A DNA stretch of 64,000 nucleotides from a virus (Duplodnaviria > Caudoviricetes). Made by a program: the position numbers and the translations under genes. The stretch lies in IMG/VR virus record IMGVR_UViG_3300024346_000003; one strand, written 5' to 3'. Of the stretch, positions 6,190-62,021 are shown one piece after another. The notes beneath the pieces are model-generated. The model saw nothing but the letters and a program-made list of their open reading frames with translations, had not been told where the DNA came from and searched no databases. Each line of letters begins with the position of its first letter. The stretch's first letter is position 1.

Positions 6190-7443
6190 TTAATTGCTTA
6201 GTGGTGCTTTAATTGTTGGGTGTGATTGGTAGTCTTTTAAGATAAATCCATCTAACTCGTAATTATCAATATATGTTTCTTTTTCATATTTGAAAAATAA
6301 TTTTGGTAGTGTATATGGTTCTCTTGTTCGTGTTGGTATATTCCATTGGTCAATTTCAGAATGCGATAATGTACTACTGTCTCCACCGTTATAAATTTGA
6401 TTAAACATTTCTTGATTAACCATCGCTCTTCGTTCATCTAAAGTTAACTCTCTACCAATCTGTTCCTTTGCTTGTTCAACATGATTCAAATACAAATGTG
6501 TATCACCCAAGTTACCAATCAATTCATCAGGAACCATATTGACTTCCTTAGCAATGATTTCTAATAACAAACCATAAGATGCAATATTGAATGGTAAACC
6601 TAAGAATGTATCTACTGAACGTTGATTCCACATTAAAGAGATTGCTCGTTTAGGAATGTTAAATGAGTTTAGTTTTTTATGACCTTCATAACTTTCTACA
6701 TAATCAATCTCCCACATTCCTCGTTTGCCTGTTTCATTTTGATTTTGTTGATACCATAGTTCAATACGTTCTTCCAAACTCAACACTCTTGTAAAAAACT
6801 GAAAATCTGTATGACAAGGGGGTAATACCATTTCATTTAATTCACCAACATTCCAAGCAGAAACTCTATTGCGTCTGGAGTCTGGGTCTGTTTTAAGTAA
6901 ATTGATTGCGTTTTGTATTTGGTCTGTTCCTTTAATACCGTAACCTCTTTCTTCAGTTTGAGGCTCATAACCCCAATTTCTCCATTGTTTACCATACACT
7001 GGACCTAATTCACCCCACTTGTTAGCAAACTCATCATTAGTTTTTATTTTATTAATAAATTCTTCTTGTGTTAATAATCTTGAAGTTGCATTATAAATAG
7101 GTCCTTCTACAATAACTATATCTTTATTAATTTCTAAATTAAGATTTATGTTTTGATTTTTGTTAATAAAATTTTTATACGCATCACCATCCCAAATGTG
7201 ACAATTATTATCAATAAGATATTTAATGTTTGTATCACCACGTAAAAACCACAACAATTCTGTTACAATTCCTTTGAAATACATCTTTTTTGATGTAATC
7301 AGTGGAAAACCATCTGACATCTTGTGTCTGATTTGCCTTCCGAATACAGATATCGTACCTGTTCCAGTACGGTCTTGCTTGGTTACTCCGTTATCTAGGA
7401 TATCTTGGAGTAGGTCTGTGTATTGTTTATCTAGTTTGTTCAT
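6190..7443 (-). CDS. thyA: thymidylate synthase with insertions
   Basis: DRTGTGT, ELLWFLRG, LGPVYGKQWR, catalytic LPPCH, QRSVDTFLGLPFNIASY, GDTHLY, YQSHPTIKAPLS. Confidence 0.97.
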   Translation of the reverse strand: MNKLDKQYTDLLQDILDNGVTKQDRTGTGTISVFGRQIRHKMSDGFPLITSKKMYFKGIVTELLWFLRGDTNIKYLIDNNCHIWDGDAYKNFINKNQNINLNLEINKDIVIVEGPIYNATSRLLTQEEFINKIKTNDEFANKWGELGPVYGKQWRNWGYEPQTEERGYGIKGTDQIQNAINLLKTDPDSRRNRVSAWNVGELNEMVLPPCHTDFQFFTRVLSLEERIELWYQQNQNETGKRGMWEIDYVESYEGHKKLNSFNIPKRAISLMWNQRSVDTFLGLPFNIASYGLLLEIIAKEVNMVPDELIGNLGDTHLYLNHVEQAKEQIGRELTLDERRAMVNQEMFNQIYNGGDSSTLSHSEIDQWNIPTRTREPYTLPKLFFKYEKETYIDNYELDGFILKDYQSHPTIKAPLSN

Positions 7444-8540: not shown

Positions 8541-11060
8541 ATGAATAGAGAGATTATACCAAAATTAAAAATCATTATCGGTGAAGCTGTTAAAGAAGCT
8601 CGATTGATGGATGATACACTAGTAAAGCCAGAACACATACTAATTTCAATAATTAATGACAATGATAATGCGTGTTCAGATACATTAAAAAGTCTAGGAC
8701 TTAATTTAGTATTACTTAATGATTGTTTAATTCTTGAAGTTAGAAATTCAAATCTAACACCTAGAATTGATAATAGCACTAAAGTAACCGTACCTTTTAG
8801 TAAAGAAAGTAAATTATTATTTAAAGCTGTTGATTTTGAATCTAAAAGTTTAGGTGATAACCACATAGACACAACACACATCATGATGGCTATGTTAAAT
8901 ACAAATAACAAATTAAATATTAGAAAATTATTAAATAGTACTGGGATTTATTATGATAAATTTATAAGCGCAGTTAAACAAATACGAGATATGTTGAATG
9001 AAGAAAATAATTCATCAGATGATGAAAGTGAATTTGATTATTCTAATAGTGAGAATGATAGAAAAGATAAAAAACCAAAAAGAAGTGCACCTAGTAAAAC
9101 ACCAGTTCTAGATAATTTCTGTACCGATATTACAAAATTAGTTGATGAAAATAAAATTGACCCAGTTGTTGGTAGAAATAAAGAAATTAAAAGAGTTACT
9201 CAGATTTTATCAAGGAGAAAGAAAAATAATCCAGTATTAATCGGTGAAGCTGGTGTTGGTAAAAGTAGTATTGTTGAGGGTATCGCATTATTAATTAAAA
9301 GTGGGTCAGTACCCAGAACATTAATGGGTAAAAAAATCTATTCATTAGATTTGGCATCAGTTGTTGCTGGTACTAAATACCGAGGTCAATTTGAAGAGCG
9401 AATTATAGCTATTTTAGATGAACTAAAAGTTAATACTGATATAATCTTATTCATTGACGAATTACACACCTTTATAGGTGCTGGAAATGCATCAGGTTCG
9501 CTAGATGCATCAAACATATTCAAACCAGCATTGGCTAGAGGTGAAATTCAAGTAATTGGTGCAACAACATTAGATGAATTTAGAGAGCACATCGAAAAAG
9601 ATAGTGCATTAACTAGAAGATTCCAACAAGTATTGGTCGAAGCAACTACCGTAGAAGAAACTAAAATTATCTTAAATAATATTAAAGATAAATATGAAAA
9701 ATACCATAAAGTAACTTATACACCTGAAGCTATTGACGAATGTGTTAAAATGGCTGATAGATATATTACCGATAGAGCTATGCCAGATAAAGCAATTGAT
9801 GTTTTAGATGAAGCTGGTGCAAGTACAAATATTGCACATGAACTTCCAGAAAATATTAAAAAACTAGAACTTAAAAAAGATGACATATTAAAAAAGAAAT
9901 TAGAGGTTGTCCAAAAACAAAAATACGAAGAAGCTGCTGAACTTAGAGATGAGGAAAGAAAGGTGAATGAAGATTTAGACAAAGCTAAAAAGAATTGGAT
10001 AGAATCTTTAGATAAAAAAAGAACAATAATTGATGTTAATTTAATTGCTGAAACAGTATCAACAATGACTGGAATTCCATTAAGTAAAATCTCCTCACAA
10101 GAGAATAAAAAACTTATGTCAATGGATAAGGATTTGATGGGTAAAGTAATTGGTCAAGATGATGCAGTACTTAAAGTGATTAAAGCTATCAAAAGAAATC
10201 GTTTAGGTATTAGAAATAGAAATAAACCAATCGGTTCATTTATTTTCTTAGGACCAACTGGTGTTGGTAAAACACATTTAAGTAAATTATTAACTGAAGA
10301 GATATTTGGTGATTCAGATGCATTAATTCGTATTGATATGAGTGAATACATGGAAAAACATTCAGTATCTAAATTAATTGGTTCACCTCCAGGATATGTT
10401 GGGTTTGAACAAGGTGGTCAATTAACTGAAAAAGTTAGAAGAAAACCATATTCAGTTATTTTATTTGATGAAATTGAAAAGGCACATGATGATGTATTCA
10501 ATATCTTACTACAATTACTAGATGAAGGTCAATTAACTGATAGTTTTGGTAGAAAAATAAACTTCAAAAATTGTCTAATAATACTTACATCAAATGTTGG
10601 TGCTAAAGAATTGACTAGCTTTGGTAAATCTATGGGGTTCCAAACTGATTCTGTTATTTCTAATGAAGAAGAAAGAACTCGTTCAATTATTGAAAAAGCA
10701 CTTAAAAAGAAATTCAAACCAGAATTCTTAAATAGACTTGATGAAATTATAGTCTTTAATAGCTTAAAAGAGGAAGATATTCATAAAATAATCTATAACG
10801 AACTTGATAAATTAAAAGAACGTGTATTAGAAATGGGTTATAATATTAAAATAAATAAATCAGCTATAGAATTTGTTGCTAAAAATGGGTATGATGAAGC
10901 TTATGGTGCCAGACCATTAAATAGAGCAATCCAAAGATACATTGAGGACCCAATTGCTGATGAAATTTTAAGTGGTAATTTCAAGGAAGGTGAAACTATA
11001 AACATAACCTTAGATAAAACCAAAAACGAAATAGTAATCAAAGGAGATAAAACTAAATAA
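8541..11060 (+). CDS. clpC: ClpC/ClpB-family AAA+ ATPase (ClpC-like with UVR middle domain)
   Basis: Clp N-domain, Walker A GEAGVGKS and GPTGVGKT, FIDELH, RRFQ, QKYEEAAELRDEE, RIDMSEYMEKHSVSKLIGSPPGYVG, YGARPLNRAIQ. Confidence 0.93.
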   Translation: MNREIIPKLKIIIGEAVKEARLMDDTLVKPEHILISIINDNDNACSDTLKSLGLNLVLLNDCLILEVRNSNLTPRIDNSTKVTVPFSKESKLLFKAVDFESKSLGDNHIDTTHIMMAMLNTNNKLNIRKLLNSTGIYYDKFISAVKQIRDMLNEENNSSDDESEFDYSNSENDRKDKKPKRSAPSKTPVLDNFCTDITKLVDENKIDPVVGRNKEIKRVTQILSRRKKNNPVLIGEAGVGKSSIVEGIALLIKSGSVPRTLMGKKIYSLDLASVVAGTKYRGQFEERIIAILDELKVNTDIILFIDELHTFIGAGNASGSLDASNIFKPALARGEIQVIGATTLDEFREHIEKDSALTRRFQQVLVEATTVEETKIILNNIKDKYEKYHKVTYTPEAIDECVKMADRYITDRAMPDKAIDVLDEAGASTNIAHELPENIKKLELKKDDILKKKLEVVQKQKYEEAAELRDEERKVNEDLDKAKKNWIESLDKKRTIIDVNLIAETVSTMTGIPLSKISSQENKKLMSMDKDLMGKVIGQDDAVLKVIKAIKRNRLGIRNRNKPIGSFIFLGPTGVGKTHLSKLLTEEIFGDSDALIRIDMSEYMEKHSVSKLIGSPPGYVGFEQGGQLTEKVRRKPYSVILFDEIEKAHDDVFNILLQLLDEGQLTDSFGRKINFKNCLIILTSNVGAKELTSFGKSMGFQTDSVISNEEERTRSIIEKALKKKFKPEFLNRLDEIIVFNSLKEEDIHKIIYNELDKLKERVLEMGYNIKINKSAIEFVAKNGYDEAYGARPLNRAIQRYIEDPIADEILSGNFKEGETINITLDKTKNEIVIKGDKTK

Positions 11061-23210: not shown

Positions 23211-24719
23211 ATGAGAATTAATCCTTTATTACTTACTGATGGGTATAAAACTGCACATCATAATATGTACCCAAAAGGTACAACACTAGTTTATTCAAAC
23301 TTTACACCAAGAACCAATAAATACGCACCAAAAGGTTGTGACCAAGTTATGTCATTTGGTCAACAAATGATTATGAAAATTATCCATGAAGCATTTCAAG
23401 ATGATTTCTTCTCACAACCAAAAGATGTGGTATGCGGTGAAATGAAACGTGAATTATCAATGTATTTAAATACAGATTATGATGTATCACACTTTGAAGA
23501 CCTTTGGGACTTGCAATACTTACCAATTAATGTAAAATCAATCGAAGAAGGTACTTTAGTGGGTATTAAAATTCCAGTATTGACAATTTATAATACACAT
23601 CCAGATTTTTATTGGATTACAAATTACTTGGAAACAATAATATCAAATCTATTGTGGAAACCAATAACTTCAGCATCAATTGCACATACATACCGTAAAG
23701 TGTTAACCAAATGGCAAGAAAAAACCGATTCTGAAAAATCATGGTTCATTGATTGGCAAGGACACGATTTCTCAATGAGAGGTATGGACTCAATCGATGC
23801 AACAATCTCATCTGGCCTTGGACACCTAACATCATTCTCAGGTTCCGATAGCTTACCAGCAATCTATGGTGCAAGAAAATACTATAATGAAACTGGATTT
23901 ATCTCTGGCTCAGTTAATGCAACAGAACACTCCGTAATGTGCGCTGGAACTAAAGATGATGAAATTGGAACATTCCGCAACCTTATGGAAACTTACCCAA
24001 CTGGTATCCTATCTATAGTATCAGATACTTGGGACTTGTGGAAAGTATGTACAGAACATATTGTTACTTTAAAAGAAGAAATTTTGGCTCGTGACGGTAA
24101 ATTAGTTATTCGTCCTGACTCTGGTGACCCAGTGGATATTCTTTGTGGTTGGGGCATACCTAATCAAACGTATAGTTTTACACCAGGTGAAAAAGTAGAC
24201 CCAGCATTTAAAGGAGTTATCGAATTGCTTTGGGATGTATTCGGTGGAACAATCAACGAACAAGGTTATAAAGTTCTTGACCCACACATTGGTGCAATCT
24301 ATGGTGATTCAATCACAATCGATAGAGCAGATGAAATCTGTGCTAGATTAGAAGCAAAAGGTTTCGCATCAACAAACGTAGTATTAGGTATCGGTTCATT
24401 CACTTATCAATACAACACTAGAGATACTTTCGGATTTGCAATGAAAGCAACATACGTTGAAGTTAATAAACCTAAGTTTGATGGTGACTTTAACCCTGAA
24501 GGTAGAGAAATCTTCAAAGACCCAATCACAGATGATGGAACCAAGAAATCAGCAACTGGATTATTGTACGTTACAAAAATATTGAATGAGTATTTTTTAG
24601 TTGATAGAGTAACTTGGGGCGAAGAAGAAGGTGGTGAATTACAAACAATCTACAAAGATGGTGAATTCTTAAATCAAACAACACTTACCGAAATTAGAAA
24701 TAGAACCAAAAACTTATGA
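23211..24719 (+). CDS. nicotinamide phosphoribosyltransferase-like protein (NAMPT/Namat-like)
   Basis: LTDGYK, HDFSMRG, ATEHSVM, SIVSDTWD, VIRPDSGDP, IYGDSIT, TRDTFGFAMKAT, KKSATG. Confidence 0.92.
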   Translation: MRINPLLLTDGYKTAHHNMYPKGTTLVYSNFTPRTNKYAPKGCDQVMSFGQQMIMKIIHEAFQDDFFSQPKDVVCGEMKRELSMYLNTDYDVSHFEDLWDLQYLPINVKSIEEGTLVGIKIPVLTIYNTHPDFYWITNYLETIISNLLWKPITSASIAHTYRKVLTKWQEKTDSEKSWFIDWQGHDFSMRGMDSIDATISSGLGHLTSFSGSDSLPAIYGARKYYNETGFISGSVNATEHSVMCAGTKDDEIGTFRNLMETYPTGILSIVSDTWDLWKVCTEHIVTLKEEILARDGKLVIRPDSGDPVDILCGWGIPNQTYSFTPGEKVDPAFKGVIELLWDVFGGTINEQGYKVLDPHIGAIYGDSITIDRADEICARLEAKGFASTNVVLGIGSFTYQYNTRDTFGFAMKATYVEVNKPKFDGDFNPEGREIFKDPITDDGTKKSATGLLYVTKILNEYFLVDRVTWGEEEGGELQTIYKDGEFLNQTTLTEIRNRTKNL

Positions 24720-38525: not shown

Positions 38526-38825
38526 TTATTCTGAAATTTTATACAACATTAAAGTATATTCTTCTGTACTAGCATACCAACCTCTTTTGTTGCACCATTT
38601 GTCAAATTTGATATAAACATCAATATCGTAATTCTTGTTATTGTATATGCGATTATCCAATGCACTCAAAGGGTTTGTATCTTTGTCTGTGTATGGTACA
38701 CTAGAGCCATTACGCAACCATATAGATTGATTAGGTTTATAATCTTTACTAAACTCACTACCACATTTAATTTCTAAGGTAGGAAATCGTTTTTGTAATT
38801 CAAATATAATTTCAGTGAAGTTCAT
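38526..38825 (-). CDS. early hypothetical protein
   Basis: own promoter. Confidence 0.7.
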   Translation of the reverse strand: MNFTEIIFELQKRFPTLEIKCGSEFSKDYKPNQSIWLRNGSSVPYTDKDTNPLSALDNRIYNNKNYDIDVYIKFDKWCNKRGWYASTEEYTLMLYKISE

Positions 38826-39009
38826 AATACTTTGTTTTAATTAGACAATACAAATATAAAACAATATAATGATATATCCAAATTATTTAACAAAAAAAAA
38901 TGGAAACATTTCTGCTCCCATTTCTTTGTTCTTTGTTTGTCAACTTAAAACTCACCATTATGGTTTGCTTATCTTTAATTTCTATTATATAAATACTTTA
39001 GTAAAAGAA

Positions 39010-39445
39010 TATGGGAGGTGGTTGTACATCCACCCCCCATTACTCCTTGTTCCATACCAAGTGCGCACCCGATACTTTATTTTCCGCTGAACAAAGCGTT
39101 TCCATTTAAGTCCCATAATCGGCAACCAAGAGCACTCATCTTGTTAGAGTTACGCTTCAAGAGGTCATCTCGTTAGAGTTACGCATTGAGACTATCTCAT
39201 CTCGTTAGAGTTACGCATAACACTTATCATCTTACCCCACACAGAATGTGGTTACGAATCAATCCATTTCCTTTACTTACGTAAAACAGTGATGGGTGTG
39301 TCAGAGGCTGTATCTCGTCTTGTTAGGTCTAAGAGGCTGTATCTCGAACCTGTTACATTATCGCTAGGCTGTTCTCATCTTGTTAATGATTGAAGCTACC
39401 GAGGACTTAAACTTCTACTATAGTATGTTAAAGAACGTTTTCCTT
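39010..39445 (-). ncRNA. candidate ~400-nt repeat-rich non-coding RNA
   Basis: own promoter (TATCTTTG at ~39454-39461), no ORF, elevated GC, ~7 TAAC(A/G)AGA(T/C)GA-like motifs, 3' GGTGG..CCACC hairpin. Confidence 0.55.
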
Positions 39446-39516
39446 TTGTTTAACAAAGATAAGTAATTTATTTTAAACTACCAAATCTTTTTGCAATTAT
39501 TTTTAATTTTTTTTTG

Positions 39517-39619
39517 TAGTCAGGACAGGATTCGAACCTGTGAATCCTCGGACTAAATACTAGACTACCACCTGAGGACCTCTTTCTAGTTAGCGTTAAT
39601 CCATCTCCGCCACCTGACT
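39517..39619 (-). ncRNA. tRNA-like RNA with non-canonical expanded middle (copy A)
   Basis: acceptor AGTCAGG/CCTGACT-A, T arm ACAGG-TTCGAAT-CCTGT, D-like arm; no canonical anticodon arm; 103 nt. Confidence 0.7.
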
Positions 39620-39706
39620 ATTTGTTATTCAAAGAACTTTAACAAAGATAAGTAATTTATTTTAAACTACCAAATCTTTTTGCAATTATTTTTAATTTTT
39701 TTTTTG

Positions 39707-39781
39707 TAGTCAAAATAGGATTCGAACCTATGTAACGATGTCTCTAATAGGACATCTGCTTTGCCACTCGGCCACTTGACT
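39707..39781 (-). ncRNA. tRNA-like RNA with 6-bp stem/8-nt anticodon-like loop (copy B)
   Basis: AGTCAAG/TTTGACT-A acceptor, GATGTC-CTATTAGA-GACATC arm, ATAGG-TTCGAAT-CCTAT T arm. Confidence 0.7.
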
Positions 39782-39867
39782 ATTTGTTATTCAAAGAACT
39801 TTAACAAAGATAAGTATTTTATTTCAATCTACCAAATCTTTTTGCAATTATTTTTAATTTATTTTTT

Positions 39868-39949: not shown

Positions 39950-40070
39950 TAGTCAGGACAGGATTCGAACCTGTATCAACAGAATGTGTAACTACCTGTT
40001 ATATTAAGCATTGTAGATTCGAACCACTCACTCTCTAGGCCTGTTGACTTACCAATTTGTCCACCTGACT
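39950..40070 (-). ncRNA. tRNA-like RNA with long insert (copy C)
   Basis: same acceptor/T arms; TCAACAG..CTGTTGA stem encloses ~65 nt including a second GGTTCGAATC; 121 nt. Confidence 0.7.
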
Positions 40071-40156
40071 ATTTGTTATTCAAAGAACTTTAACAAAGAT
40101 AAGTAAACTTTTCCAATCTACCAAATATTTTTGTAATTATTTTTAATTTATTTTTG

Positions 40157-61908: not shown

Positions 61909-62021
61909 TAGTCAGGACAGGATTCGAACCTGTACTTCATATAGTATACAATATGGTGTGTTTATACTTCACACTCTGCTTTAACCATTAAGGTGTGTGT
62001 CTACCATTCCACCACCTGACT
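61909..62021 (-). ncRNA. tRNA-like RNA with expanded middle (copy D)
   Basis: identical AGTCAGG/CCTGACT-A acceptor and T arm; Leu-type D arm TGGTGGAATGGTAGACAC; 113 nt. Confidence 0.7.

Follow-up and report, generated by a model that had tools for sequence, protein, structure and literature searches.

A structured non-coding RNA gene with two arrays of a shared motif in the tRNA gene cluster of a giant Bacteroidota phage

A folded, transcribed RNA of about 400 bases, for which no match was seen among described RNA families, is encoded inside the tRNA gene cluster of a giant freshwater phage of Bacteroidota. We analyzed it within a 64,000-nucleotide stretch of this phage's DNA (the window), and the element is almost certainly a stable, structured, non-coding RNA gene of large aquatic Bacteroidota phages: it is conserved, shows compensatory base changes, lacks a conserved ORF, has transcription signals of its own and turns up in RNA libraries. 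Once mature, at about 370-400 nt, the RNA is built from a long closing helix (P1), an inner helix (P2) with two hairpins and an almost invariant 3' domain, and between P1 and P2 run two opposed strands, each with two or three copies of a common core, which are not paired together. Since this is a real, conserved non-coding RNA gene, found in RNA libraries and with its repeats kept, multivalent binding is the most plausible reading of its function.

Gene layout, transcription signals and expression

The earlier note had placed a repeat-rich non-coding element with its own promoter and a terminal hairpin on the minus strand, and all of the features described there are present in the sequence. 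Read from 39461 to 39001 on that strand, the element comprises a promoter, an rrn-like boxA leader, three A repeats, three B repeats and an intrinsic terminator, with the following parts.

39454-39487, minus strand: Bacteroidota-type promoter, with a -33 TTTG within GATTTGG (39487-39481), a -7 element TATCTTTG (39461-39454) and a 20-nt spacer
39413-39447, minus strand: 5' leader with boxA-like GUUCUUUAA at 39436-39428, probably absent from the mature RNA
39392-39412, minus strand: 5' strand of P1, GUUUAAGUCCUCGGUAGCUUC, whose partner is 39127-39104 in six of six lineages, with compensatory changes
39302-39386, minus strand: A array, units 39386-39363, 39356-39331 and 39326-39302, conserved in all homologues; unit pattern [N]UAAC-N2-3-GAYGAG-AYACAGCCUCU
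39216-39303, minus strand: central domain, in which P2 (in the window UGACAC, 39303-39298, with GUGUUA within 39223-39216) closes hairpins H1 (39295-39264) and H2 (39252-39234)
39132-39216, minus strand: B array, units 39216-39193, 39184-39161 and 39155-39132; unit pattern GCG-NAA-CUCUAAY-N1-4-GAYGAG-YAC
39104-39127, minus strand: 3' strand of P1, GGUUGCCGAUUAUGGGACUUAAAU, assigned by alignment and covariation
39041-39103, minus strand: 3' domain, made of a 29-nt block GGAAACGCUUUGUUCAGCGGAAAAUAAAG (39103-39075, containing a CGCU/AGCG hairpin), hairpin H4 (39073-39054) and an invariant AUGGAAC (39055-39049)
39001-39040, minus strand: intrinsic terminator, a terminal hairpin of 11 pairs (39040-39011) followed by a T-rich tail

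The GC content, said to exceed that of the flanks, is indeed 0.40-0.44 within the element versus 0.22-0.31 around it. The absence of an ORF also holds, in that no ORF is conserved: most indels that separate the homologues have lengths not divisible by three, and a spurious 46-aa ORF used as a query for further copies retrieved no homologue. The terminal hairpin is the sole terminator-like site detected in 38800-39700.

The Bacteroidota promoter consensus is TTTG / TAnnTTTG, and the promoter cassette of the element, conserved in its homologues, also lies upstream of the adjacent tRNA-like genes. The word GTTCTTTRA occurs 8 times in the window versus 2.7 expected, with half of these sites (4/8) located just downstream of promoters, namely those of the repeat RNA and of three tRNA-like genes. 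An rrn-type boxA, a GUUCUUUGA/AA-like word, is found at 39436-39428, shortly past the promoter. The element leader has AAAACGUUCUUUAA, and its counterpart in Bacteroidota 16S leaders, similarly placed downstream of the promoter, is AAAAAGUUCUUUGAA or AAAGUUCUUUAGA; the phage tRNA-like genes carry the same boxA word. Among three Bacteroidota genomes sampled, the word is present in the 16S leaders of two (G216 and G168) and as a variant in the third (G048), and the leader of a relative of the element, L094, is identical to the G216 16S leader at 14 of 15 bases. This likeness is limited to the 5' leader, to the exclusion of the RNA body. Host RNA polymerase would read the gene from this housekeeping-type promoter, within an array of small promoter-plus-gene cassettes, and the rrn-like leader probably shields the untranslated transcript from premature termination before being cleaved off, probably at G39412.

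The transcription presumed in the earlier note is borne out by contigs from four RNA libraries (four studies), which are confined to 39043-39412 and reach 370 nt, the full length. In two studies the contigs run no further than 39412, where P1 begins. The RNA runs were chosen by a search with the element sequence itself, and the evidence consists of assembled contigs with a depth of about 3-4, from which strand, level and true ends are not readable. No RNA contigs fell on the neighboring protein genes within the 4 kb examined, an absence that is no proof of silence there.

Relatives and the covarying scaffold

Homologues about 73% identical over their full length, from promoter to terminator, were found in six further lineages from lake, estuary and marine metagenomes; the comparisons below rest on n = 6 independent sequences. 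Pattern scans of IMG/VR returned two contigs as the only true relatives (L093 and L094), the other matches to the A- or B-array patterns (L096-L103 and L117-L120) being coding repeats, and a metagenome scan matched 92 loci, among which seven were true relatives and most of the others were GTAACN hexamer repeats. A distant-mode blastn search of 50,697 GenBank phage records gave no match, a search of 185,579 species genomes did not turn up the 3'-domain word, the B-array pattern was found in none of a sample of 401 Bacteroidota genomes, and no such RNA came up in the literature searched. A lone match in a genome contig, where a Bacteroidales MAG has GC-rich coding sequence, was discarded as chance. 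The Rfam covariance-model search of the window and four homologues matched the flanking tRNAs only, with nothing inside the element at gathering scores or at E <= 10.

The element is flanked by tRNA genes in every lineage. In four relatives (L094, L031, L032 and L072) an 85-nt tRNA lacking its own promoter begins 2-20 nt past the terminal hairpin, and in these phages the 3' end of the RNA would be generated by processing of the abutting tRNA. The window has lost this tRNA and fully retains the RNA and its hairpin. The downstream 99-aa gene has four more distant homologues (60-87% identical) with no such RNA within 2.5 kb, and the RNA is therefore not tied to that gene. The ten neighboring proteins scanned are ORFans, none of them matching a Pfam family significantly, Cas families included.

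A scaffold composed of P1, P2, H1, H2, H4 and the terminator covaries among the homologues and encloses both arrays. Across its 60 pairs, 91.4% of the cells in the alignment are paired, compared with 33-51% when the partners are slid, and 15 of the 60 pairs change on both sides, a number reached in none of 500 shuffles. All lineages form P1, and compensatory changes are seen in it. The shape of P2, H1 and H2 is common to the folds of the individual sequences though the sequences themselves differ: P2 is CUGCCUU/GAGGuCGG in the relatives versus UGACAC/GUGUUA in the window, and both H1 and H2 covary. In H4, four pairs have changes on both sides. Conservation is highest in the 3' domain and not in the repeats: 28 of the 29 positions of the domain's 29-nt block are identical in six lineages, and L064 has a single U-to-C change.

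Two arrays of one shared core

Both unit types contain a core of about 16 nt, (C)UAAC-N1-4-GAYGAG-(A)YAC, to which AGCCUCU is appended on the 3' side in A units and GCGNAACU on the 5' side in B units. The units are 20-26 nt long and are separated by gaps of 5-12 nt, giving a period of 29-33 nt (start-to-start 32 and 29 nt among the B units); A1 is slightly degenerate. The shared core TAACRAGAYGAG occurs four times in the 64-kb window, always within the element, versus 0.02 expected, and CTAAYN{1,4}GAYGAG occurs three times versus 0.19 expected, with no occurrence in the window beyond the element. The gaps of the B array, described earlier as unrelated spacers of about 9-11 nt, turned out otherwise: their first bases are conserved (YAC or a CUCU-like stretch), and the last of them serves as the 3' strand of P1.

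Units compared inside one genome show an identity of 0.85, and those compared across genomes 0.81-0.84, regardless of position. Slippage, which had been considered as a source of the repeats, does not fit units that are 81-85% alike both within and between phages; from their sequences, the units appear to be equivalent, constrained sites. Whole units can be absent: L094 has 2+2 units and not 3+3, having lost one A unit and one B unit of 33 nt each, and an RNA contig of run X18 skips 32 nt, from 39164 to 39197, and lacks one B unit. The number of A units equals that of B units in six of six lineages, the 2+2 form included, a parity that the X18 contig may break. Within the core itself, GAYGAG is replaced by UGCAAG in A2 and A3 of L093.

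Judged by duplex energies, A units mostly pair more weakly with the real B units than with shuffled ones, and fold predictions for the arrays differ between lineages whereas those for the scaffold agree. On these predictions the units would be displayed and not paired, in arrays that have no conserved Watson-Crick fold. A pairing of A1 with the GAGGUCGGUAU stretch before B1, proposed by RNAalifold, was dropped because it is missing in the window lineage and competes with P2. Targets complementary to the A-specific and B-specific words showed no enrichment in the window, and pairing with the neighboring tRNA-like RNAs gave z-scores between -1.0 and +0.6. Inspection of the unit sequences by eye also led us to reject a hammerhead core (no CU before GANGA), a C/D box or kink-turn (D box not conserved), anticodon or D-arm mimicry (stems and U33 lost), TRAP-like GAG triplets and AUG-centered start-site mimicry (AUG not conserved).

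Readings of the repeats

The best explanation we can offer, held tentatively and with somewhat less than even confidence, is that the element makes an early RNA, both stable and processed, which serves one RNA-binding factor as a multivalent platform or sponge. Several copies of this factor would occupy four to six equivalent sites, possibly as dimers bridging an A site and a B site, and the factor could be either a host factor titrated by the phage during takeover or a phage protein organized by the RNA. The flexible copy number (the 2+2 form of L094 and the X18 contig) is that of sponge RNAs, but no known RNA-binding-protein motif was recognized and the neighboring genes are ORFans; moreover, this reading leaves the almost invariant 3' domain unexplained. 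As for the pairing of A and B through a dimer, with n = 6 sequences the single contrast between 3+3 and 2+2 is weak support.

Sponge RNAs of the CsrB/RsmZ type carry GGA (ANGGA) motifs, mostly in hairpin loops, that bind CsrA/RsmE dimers, and CrcZ of Pseudomonas is an RNA of about 400 nt with several A-rich motifs for Hfq/Crc. The phage element resembles them in size (350-430 nt), in having its own promoter and terminator, and in presenting a short motif in several copies between structured parts, with a copy number that varies among relatives; in RsmZ, dimers also clamp pairs of sites, which would explain the equal numbers of A and B units. It differs in being phage-encoded and in its long units (about 16-26 nt) of two flavors on opposite strands of one giant internal loop. 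Multivalent binding, the idea of the earlier note, is still the most plausible reading, but membership of the CsrB/RsmZ type fails, as the GGA or AANAANAA motif is missing from the units of five lineages (AUGGA occurs by chance in two L093 units) and no Rfam family matches. Among 61 genomes sampled from the phylum, 8 had CsrA (PF02599), which was missing in the Bacteroides thetaiotaomicron control.

A more specific and more doubtful version would have the RNA act as a phage-made dimer clamp, in which an A core and the facing B core hold one dimer of a host regulator or nuclease across the giant internal loop, each RNA removing two to three dimers. To our knowledge the best-studied Bacteroidota lack Hfq, ProQ and CsrA, and therefore such a clamp, if true, would point to a new global RNA-binding protein of these bacteria; among phages of Bacteroidota it would also be the first protein-sponge RNA to be known. 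Should the motif prove to be a protein site, the RNA offers a ready bait for finding a new RNA-binding factor, whether from Flavobacteria-like hosts or from giant phages. How Bacteroidota regulate through RNA is poorly mapped, and large structured RNAs without known relatives are rare; this one combines conservation, covariation and expression evidence with an unusual design, a rigid covarying frame holding two matched arrays of one motif in which whole units can be gained or lost. The tRNA-shaped RNAs, the Y-like RNAs and the rrn-style leaders on the RNA genes of this phage together suggest that giant Bacteroidota phages invest heavily in non-coding RNA during takeover.

Against a sponge or platform stands the possibility, which we regard as rather unlikely, of an architectural RNA whose repeats are three-dimensional modules (UAA/GAN-like loops, A-stacks), with the P1-P2 region stacked into a rod or several RNAs self-assembling as in ROOL/GOLLD cages, and with the invariant 3' domain or the assembly as the active part. 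Many ROOL and GOLLD genes adjoin tRNAs, as the phage element does, and their cages have been seen by cryo-EM. A further parallel is offered by the stable species 1 and 2 RNAs (rnaC, rnaD) from the tRNA cluster of phage T4; the function of these RNAs has at most been glimpsed recently. Like all of them, the element is phage-encoded, non-coding and highly structured, lies among tRNA genes and probably owes its maturation to tRNA-processing enzymes. In size it falls between the larger GOLLD and ROOL and the smaller T4 RNAs, none of which is known to have internal repeat arrays, and a kinship with GOLLD and ROOL finds no backing in sequence or covariance-model similarity. The UAA/GAN motif has the signature ccUAAg/uGAagg, in a helix-UAA-helix / helix-GAN-helix arrangement with Watson-Crick pairs flanking U and N (PMC2615604). 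The B core CUC-UAA-N2-5-GAY-GAG agrees with this signature, and the repeats could therefore be architectural modules and not binding sites. The A and B cores could also be aligned antiparallel with UAA facing GAY twice, and both the equal numbers of A and B units and the near-invariance of the 3' domain suit such a role. However, the flanking stems would be just 3 bp without covariation, the far side is a 2-5-nt loop, GAC variants are uncompensated, A units lack the upstream CUC of the 5' stem, and the UGCAAG replacement in L093 removes GAYGAG altogether; modules of a unique fold are, besides, rarely lost in pairs without harm. An unlikely alternative that keeps multivalent binding is a decoy for an RNA-cutting host defense, in which the units mimic the substrate or RNA antitoxin of an endoribonuclease (of a type III toxin-antitoxin system, of MazF/PIN type or tRNA-directed) and sequester the enzyme at an early stage of infection. 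Phage PhiTE reportedly uses its pseudo-ToxI repeats against a host toxin in this way, and these share with the element a phage-borne non-coding RNA, tandem units of about 30 nt, a changeable copy number and the neutralization of a protein that multivalent binding would bring. The 29-33-nt period is near the 34-45 nt of type III antitoxin repeats, and the promoter cassette is common to the neighboring RNA genes. Type III antitoxin arrays (ToxI, CptI, TenpI) are, however, exact head-to-tail repeats without scaffold helices, unlike the two unit types, variable gaps and covarying scaffold seen here. Furthermore, PhiTE copies a host array, whereas the B-array pattern and the 3'-domain word are missing from the genomes searched (0/401 and 0/185,579), and therefore no host template for mimicry was seen; no Rfam family appears inside the element at E <= 10, and the 370-nt contigs in RNA libraries imply that the RNA is not fully diced.

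The remaining explanations fare worse. The promoterless tRNA just past the hairpin in four relatives would suit a cis-acting leader or attenuator that senses a signal and controls read-through of the terminal hairpin, but this is improbable given that the window keeps the RNA and hairpin without that tRNA, that no alternative anti-terminator pairing is conserved and that 400 nt with six repeats far exceeds, as far as we know, any attenuator described. The earlier note had also raised a mini repeat-spacer guide array, and repeats do alternate with more variable stretches; yet CRISPR arrays have repeats of 23-50 nt and unique spacers of 26-72 nt, and the 20-26-nt units here are separated by gaps too short to guide (5-12 nt), with conserved first bases and one of them a P1 strand. 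Two repeat types within a single covarying fold, flanks of tRNA genes, neighbors without a Cas family and the lack of enriched complementary targets in the window make a CRISPR-like array, or a precursor of six guide RNAs of about 30 nt, very improbable. We give equally little credence to an rRNA mimic, particularly three copies of 23S helix 69 (CGUAACUCUAACG vs CGUAACUAUAACG), a hairpin in which a stem closes a 7-nt AACUAUA loop. Although helix 69 of two Bacteroidota 23S genes and of a metagenome 23S fragment is matched at 12 of 13 bases, the closing U-A pair and CG/CG stem are lost in relatives (GCGGAA, GCGCCA or GCGAAA), with the stem not kept in L093, L094, L032 and L064; the conserved part is ACUCUAAY plus GAYGAG, common to the A units, which have no helix-69 part, and the best local score against two complete Bacteroidota rrn operons (22.3 bits) is below the shuffled-query mean (23.5). 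Finally, direct repeats spaced at 29-33 bp in two clusters recall a DNA element in which two sets of iterons, the repeats spaced at about three helical turns, bind a replication or partition protein. As a main role this is scarcely credible for an element with a conserved promoter, leader and terminator to which the RNA-library contigs are confined, and the compensatory base-pair changes in six helices point to selection on the RNA fold.

A conserved RNA at the end of the tRNA cluster

The element, read on the minus strand from 39461 to 39001, encodes a structured RNA that is conserved and turns up in RNA libraries. It is the last member of a group of clustered tRNA and tRNA-like genes, in AT-rich phage DNA with promoters of the Bacteroidota type. 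All the features named in the earlier note, that is, a promoter, two sets of three short repeats (A and B units) and a terminal hairpin, were found on the minus strand.

Features of the window
39487-39481 (containing the -33 TTTG) and 39461-39454 (-7, TATCTTTG), minus: promoter cassette, by sequence reading
39436-39428, minus: boxA-like leader word GUUCUUUAA
39428-39436, 39629-39637, 39791-39799 and 40080-40088, minus: GUUCUUU(G/A)A in the cluster's four RNA genes, 15-25 nt after the -7 box
39412-39392 with 39127-39104, minus: P1, closing helix, found in all lineages with compensatory changes
39386-39363, 39356-39331 and 39326-39302, minus: A units, by sequence reading
39216-39193, 39184-39161 and 39155-39132, minus: B units, by sequence reading
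39040-39001, minus: 11-pair terminal hairpin and T-rich tail, by terminator scan
6190-7443, minus: thymidylate synthase gene
8541-11060, plus: ClpB-like ATPase gene
23211-24719, plus: nicotinamide phosphoribosyltransferase gene

The terminal hairpin is the sole terminator-like site between 38800 and 39700, and the 64-kb window contains four copies of the word common to the units, TAACRAGAYGAG, against 0.02 expected, all of them within the element. The GC content is indeed above that of the flanks (0.40-0.44 versus 0.22-0.31), and the earlier claim that there is no ORF also held, as only short ORFs were found, none of them conserved or kept in position between lineages; indels between lineages have lengths that are mostly not multiples of three.

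A metagenome scan with two B-type words returned 92 loci, mostly hexamer repeats, with seven true relatives among them: L013, almost identical in sequence to the window; L048, from a marine shotgun read set, with 93% identity over part of the element only; L031, L047 and L072, which form a single lineage; and L032 and L064, which represent two more. Two IMG/VR contigs (L093 and L094) were recovered with the invariant 3' word. Identity among relatives is about 73% over the full length from promoter through terminator, confirming that the element is conserved. Searches of GenBank phages for the element and of 401 Bacteroidota genomes for the B-array pattern gave no match, 185,579 prokaryote species (one genome each) yielded a single chance match in a coding region, and Rfam applied to the window and four relatives produced no family match to the element. 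We found no paper on this RNA in the literature, and Rfam is without such a family.

The ClpB-like ATPase is nearest to those of two uncultured phages of 630-640 kb (~59% identity), and the window's phage may belong to the "moraphages", a lineage of large aquatic Bacteroidota phages described in 2025 (PMC12619734). Matches to the tRNA model at 39950-40070, 39517-39619, 61909-62021 and 39707-39781 include ones with inserts of 30-55 nt in place of the anticodon loop and one with a four-base "anticodon" call.

Scaffold fold and repeat arrays

Covariation over six sequences gives good support, not proof, for an RNA scaffold fold. Across its 60 pairs, 91.4% of cells were paired versus 33-51% with partners slid by 1-3 columns, 15 pairs changed on both sides versus 2-7 in these controls, and 0 of 500 shuffles matched the observed values. 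Compensation in P1 is exemplified by the change from UUUAAG/CUUAAA to UUGUUUG/AAUCAAAC in L064. The inner helix P2 (UGACAC/GUGUUA in the window versus CUGCCUU/GAGGuCGG in relatives) encloses hairpins H1 and H2, which agree in shape across lineages and differ in sequence. The domain 3' of P1 comprises a 29-nt block (GGAAACGCUUUGUUCAGCGGAAAAUAAAG), identical at 28 of 29 positions in six lineages with one U-to-C change in L064, followed by the covarying hairpin H4 and an invariant AUGGAAC.

Both arrays lie inside the giant P1-P2 internal loop, the A units along its 5' strand, the B units along its 3' strand. Common to every unit is the core (C)UAAC-N1-4-GAYGAG-(A)YAC, to which A units add AGCCUCU after and B units GCG-NAA-CU before. 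Unit identity is 0.81-0.84 between phages versus 0.85 inside one phage, regardless of position, so all the copies are kept to a single consensus. A and B units are not complementary; most duplexes between them had weaker energies than those formed when the B units were shuffled (-4.7 to -6.8 versus -8.2 ± 2.9 kcal/mol in L031). The fold predicted for the arrays varies among lineages, and that of the scaffold is the same in each. One A and one B unit are missing from L094, each through a 33-nt deletion, and one RNA contig lacks a B unit. A rigid frame displays four to six equivalent, unpaired, strongly constrained copies of the motif, and their number is changeable.

Transcription, leader and downstream tRNA

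Six RNA libraries contain part of the stretch. When four libraries from four studies were compared with the 4 kb around the element, high-likeness contigs were confined to 39043-39412 (370 nt in run X15, 258 in X16, 2 x 151 in X17 and 212 in X18), and none fell on the flanking protein genes. The predicted transcription is thereby supported by contigs that are assembled at a depth of 3-4, show neither strand nor true ends, and come from runs picked using this same stretch. The X15 and X17 contigs both end at 39412, the base with which P1 begins, which hints that a 33-nt leader is cut from the RNA.

GTTCTTTRA occurs eight times in the window versus 2.7 expected, and four of the copies come directly after a promoter, one for this RNA and three for tRNA-like genes. 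Among three Bacteroidota genomes for which rrn loci were retrieved, two also have the word in a 16S leader, one such leader matching that of L094 at 14 of 15 bases. The boxA-type antitermination signal is known from rrn operons; by analogy, we read the element's leader word as a signal of this type, which would suit a long untranslated transcript, and the phage seems to equip both its tRNA-like genes and its non-coding RNA genes with boxA antitermination leaders of the rrn type. The 5' leaders of L064 (~2130-2210) and L094 (1190-1262) contain the same insert of ~72 nt, which begins directly after boxA and has another boxA-like word (GGUUUUUUAAGA) behind it. The two ends of the insert, AAACCAUA...UAUGGUUU, complement each other, making a hairpin fold probable, and the insert resembles a small leader element that is mobile or has been duplicated.

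Four relatives have a promoterless 85-nt class II tRNA starting 2-20 nt past the terminal hairpin (L094:1617-1701, L072:91-175 and L032:1452-1536 among them), identified in L094 as tRNA-Leu(UAA) by its anticodon loop CUUAAAA. This arrangement implies either read-through of the hairpin or one processed precursor, and in those relatives the RNA is probably co-transcribed with the tRNA and trimmed by tRNA-processing enzymes.

Possible roles of the RNA

Repeat-bearing multivalent RNAs and large phage RNAs beside tRNAs are already known kinds; what is new is the motif, the phage lineage and the placing of two arrays in one covarying frame. The reading we tentatively prefer is that of a multivalent platform or sponge for one RNA-binding factor, the motif copies being its putative binding sites. 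The equivalent, constrained repeats and their changeable number speak for the sponge proposed in the earlier note. Its CsrB/RsmZ type was not upheld, since the units lack the GGA motif and no Rfam model matched; CsrA turned up in no more than 8 of the 61 genomes sampled from the phylum. Kinship with GOLLD or ROOL was likewise not upheld, with no Rfam match in the window. Dimers bridging the A and B strands would fit the equal numbers of A and B units; RsmE dimers bridge in this manner on RsmZ, and the matched counts here would allow the same. The factor may be a host factor titrated during takeover, as suggested by the host-type promoter and the position in the phage's cassette array, or equally possibly a phage protein.

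Other explanations are less likely. The repeats might be UAA/GAN-like modules (motif signature from PMC2615604) of an architectural or self-assembling RNA, which we consider unlikely. Somewhat less probable again, the unpaired copies could act as a decoy for RNA-cutting host defence. Attenuation of the downstream tRNA is improbable, and the window's lineage has lost that tRNA and kept the RNA intact. There is very little in favour of the mini repeat-spacer guide array also suggested earlier: gaps are 5-12 nt, one of them is a P1 strand, and a scan of ten neighbouring proteins revealed no Cas or other Pfam family match. Words complementary to those specific to the A or B units are not enriched in the window, and the RNA showed no pairing with the tRNA-like RNAs next to it. 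Mimicry of rRNA has an equally slim chance, because the 12/13-base match to 23S helix 69 is real but its stem is lost in relatives, and two whole Bacteroidota rrn operons matched no better than shuffled sequence. Least probable of all, for copies carried in a covarying RNA frame, are DNA iterons. The near-invariant 3' domain is accounted for by neither the sponge reading nor any of these rivals.

Three unrelated metagenome contigs (L024:7721-7775, L030:1153-1207 and L033:5113-5166) each have the word CACGC(C/A)UAAA(G/U)GCGUAACUCUAAC, half of it identical to the B unit, in two copies at a distance of 42 nt. Just downstream of the RNA, on the minus strand of the window at 38889-38978, a conserved stretch (CCAUAAUGGU...UUGACAAACAAAGAA), which in L094 also occurs after the tRNA, is followed by another hairpin and its T-run (GGGAGCAGAAAUGUUUCCAUUUUUUUUU); this region might form one more small transcription unit.
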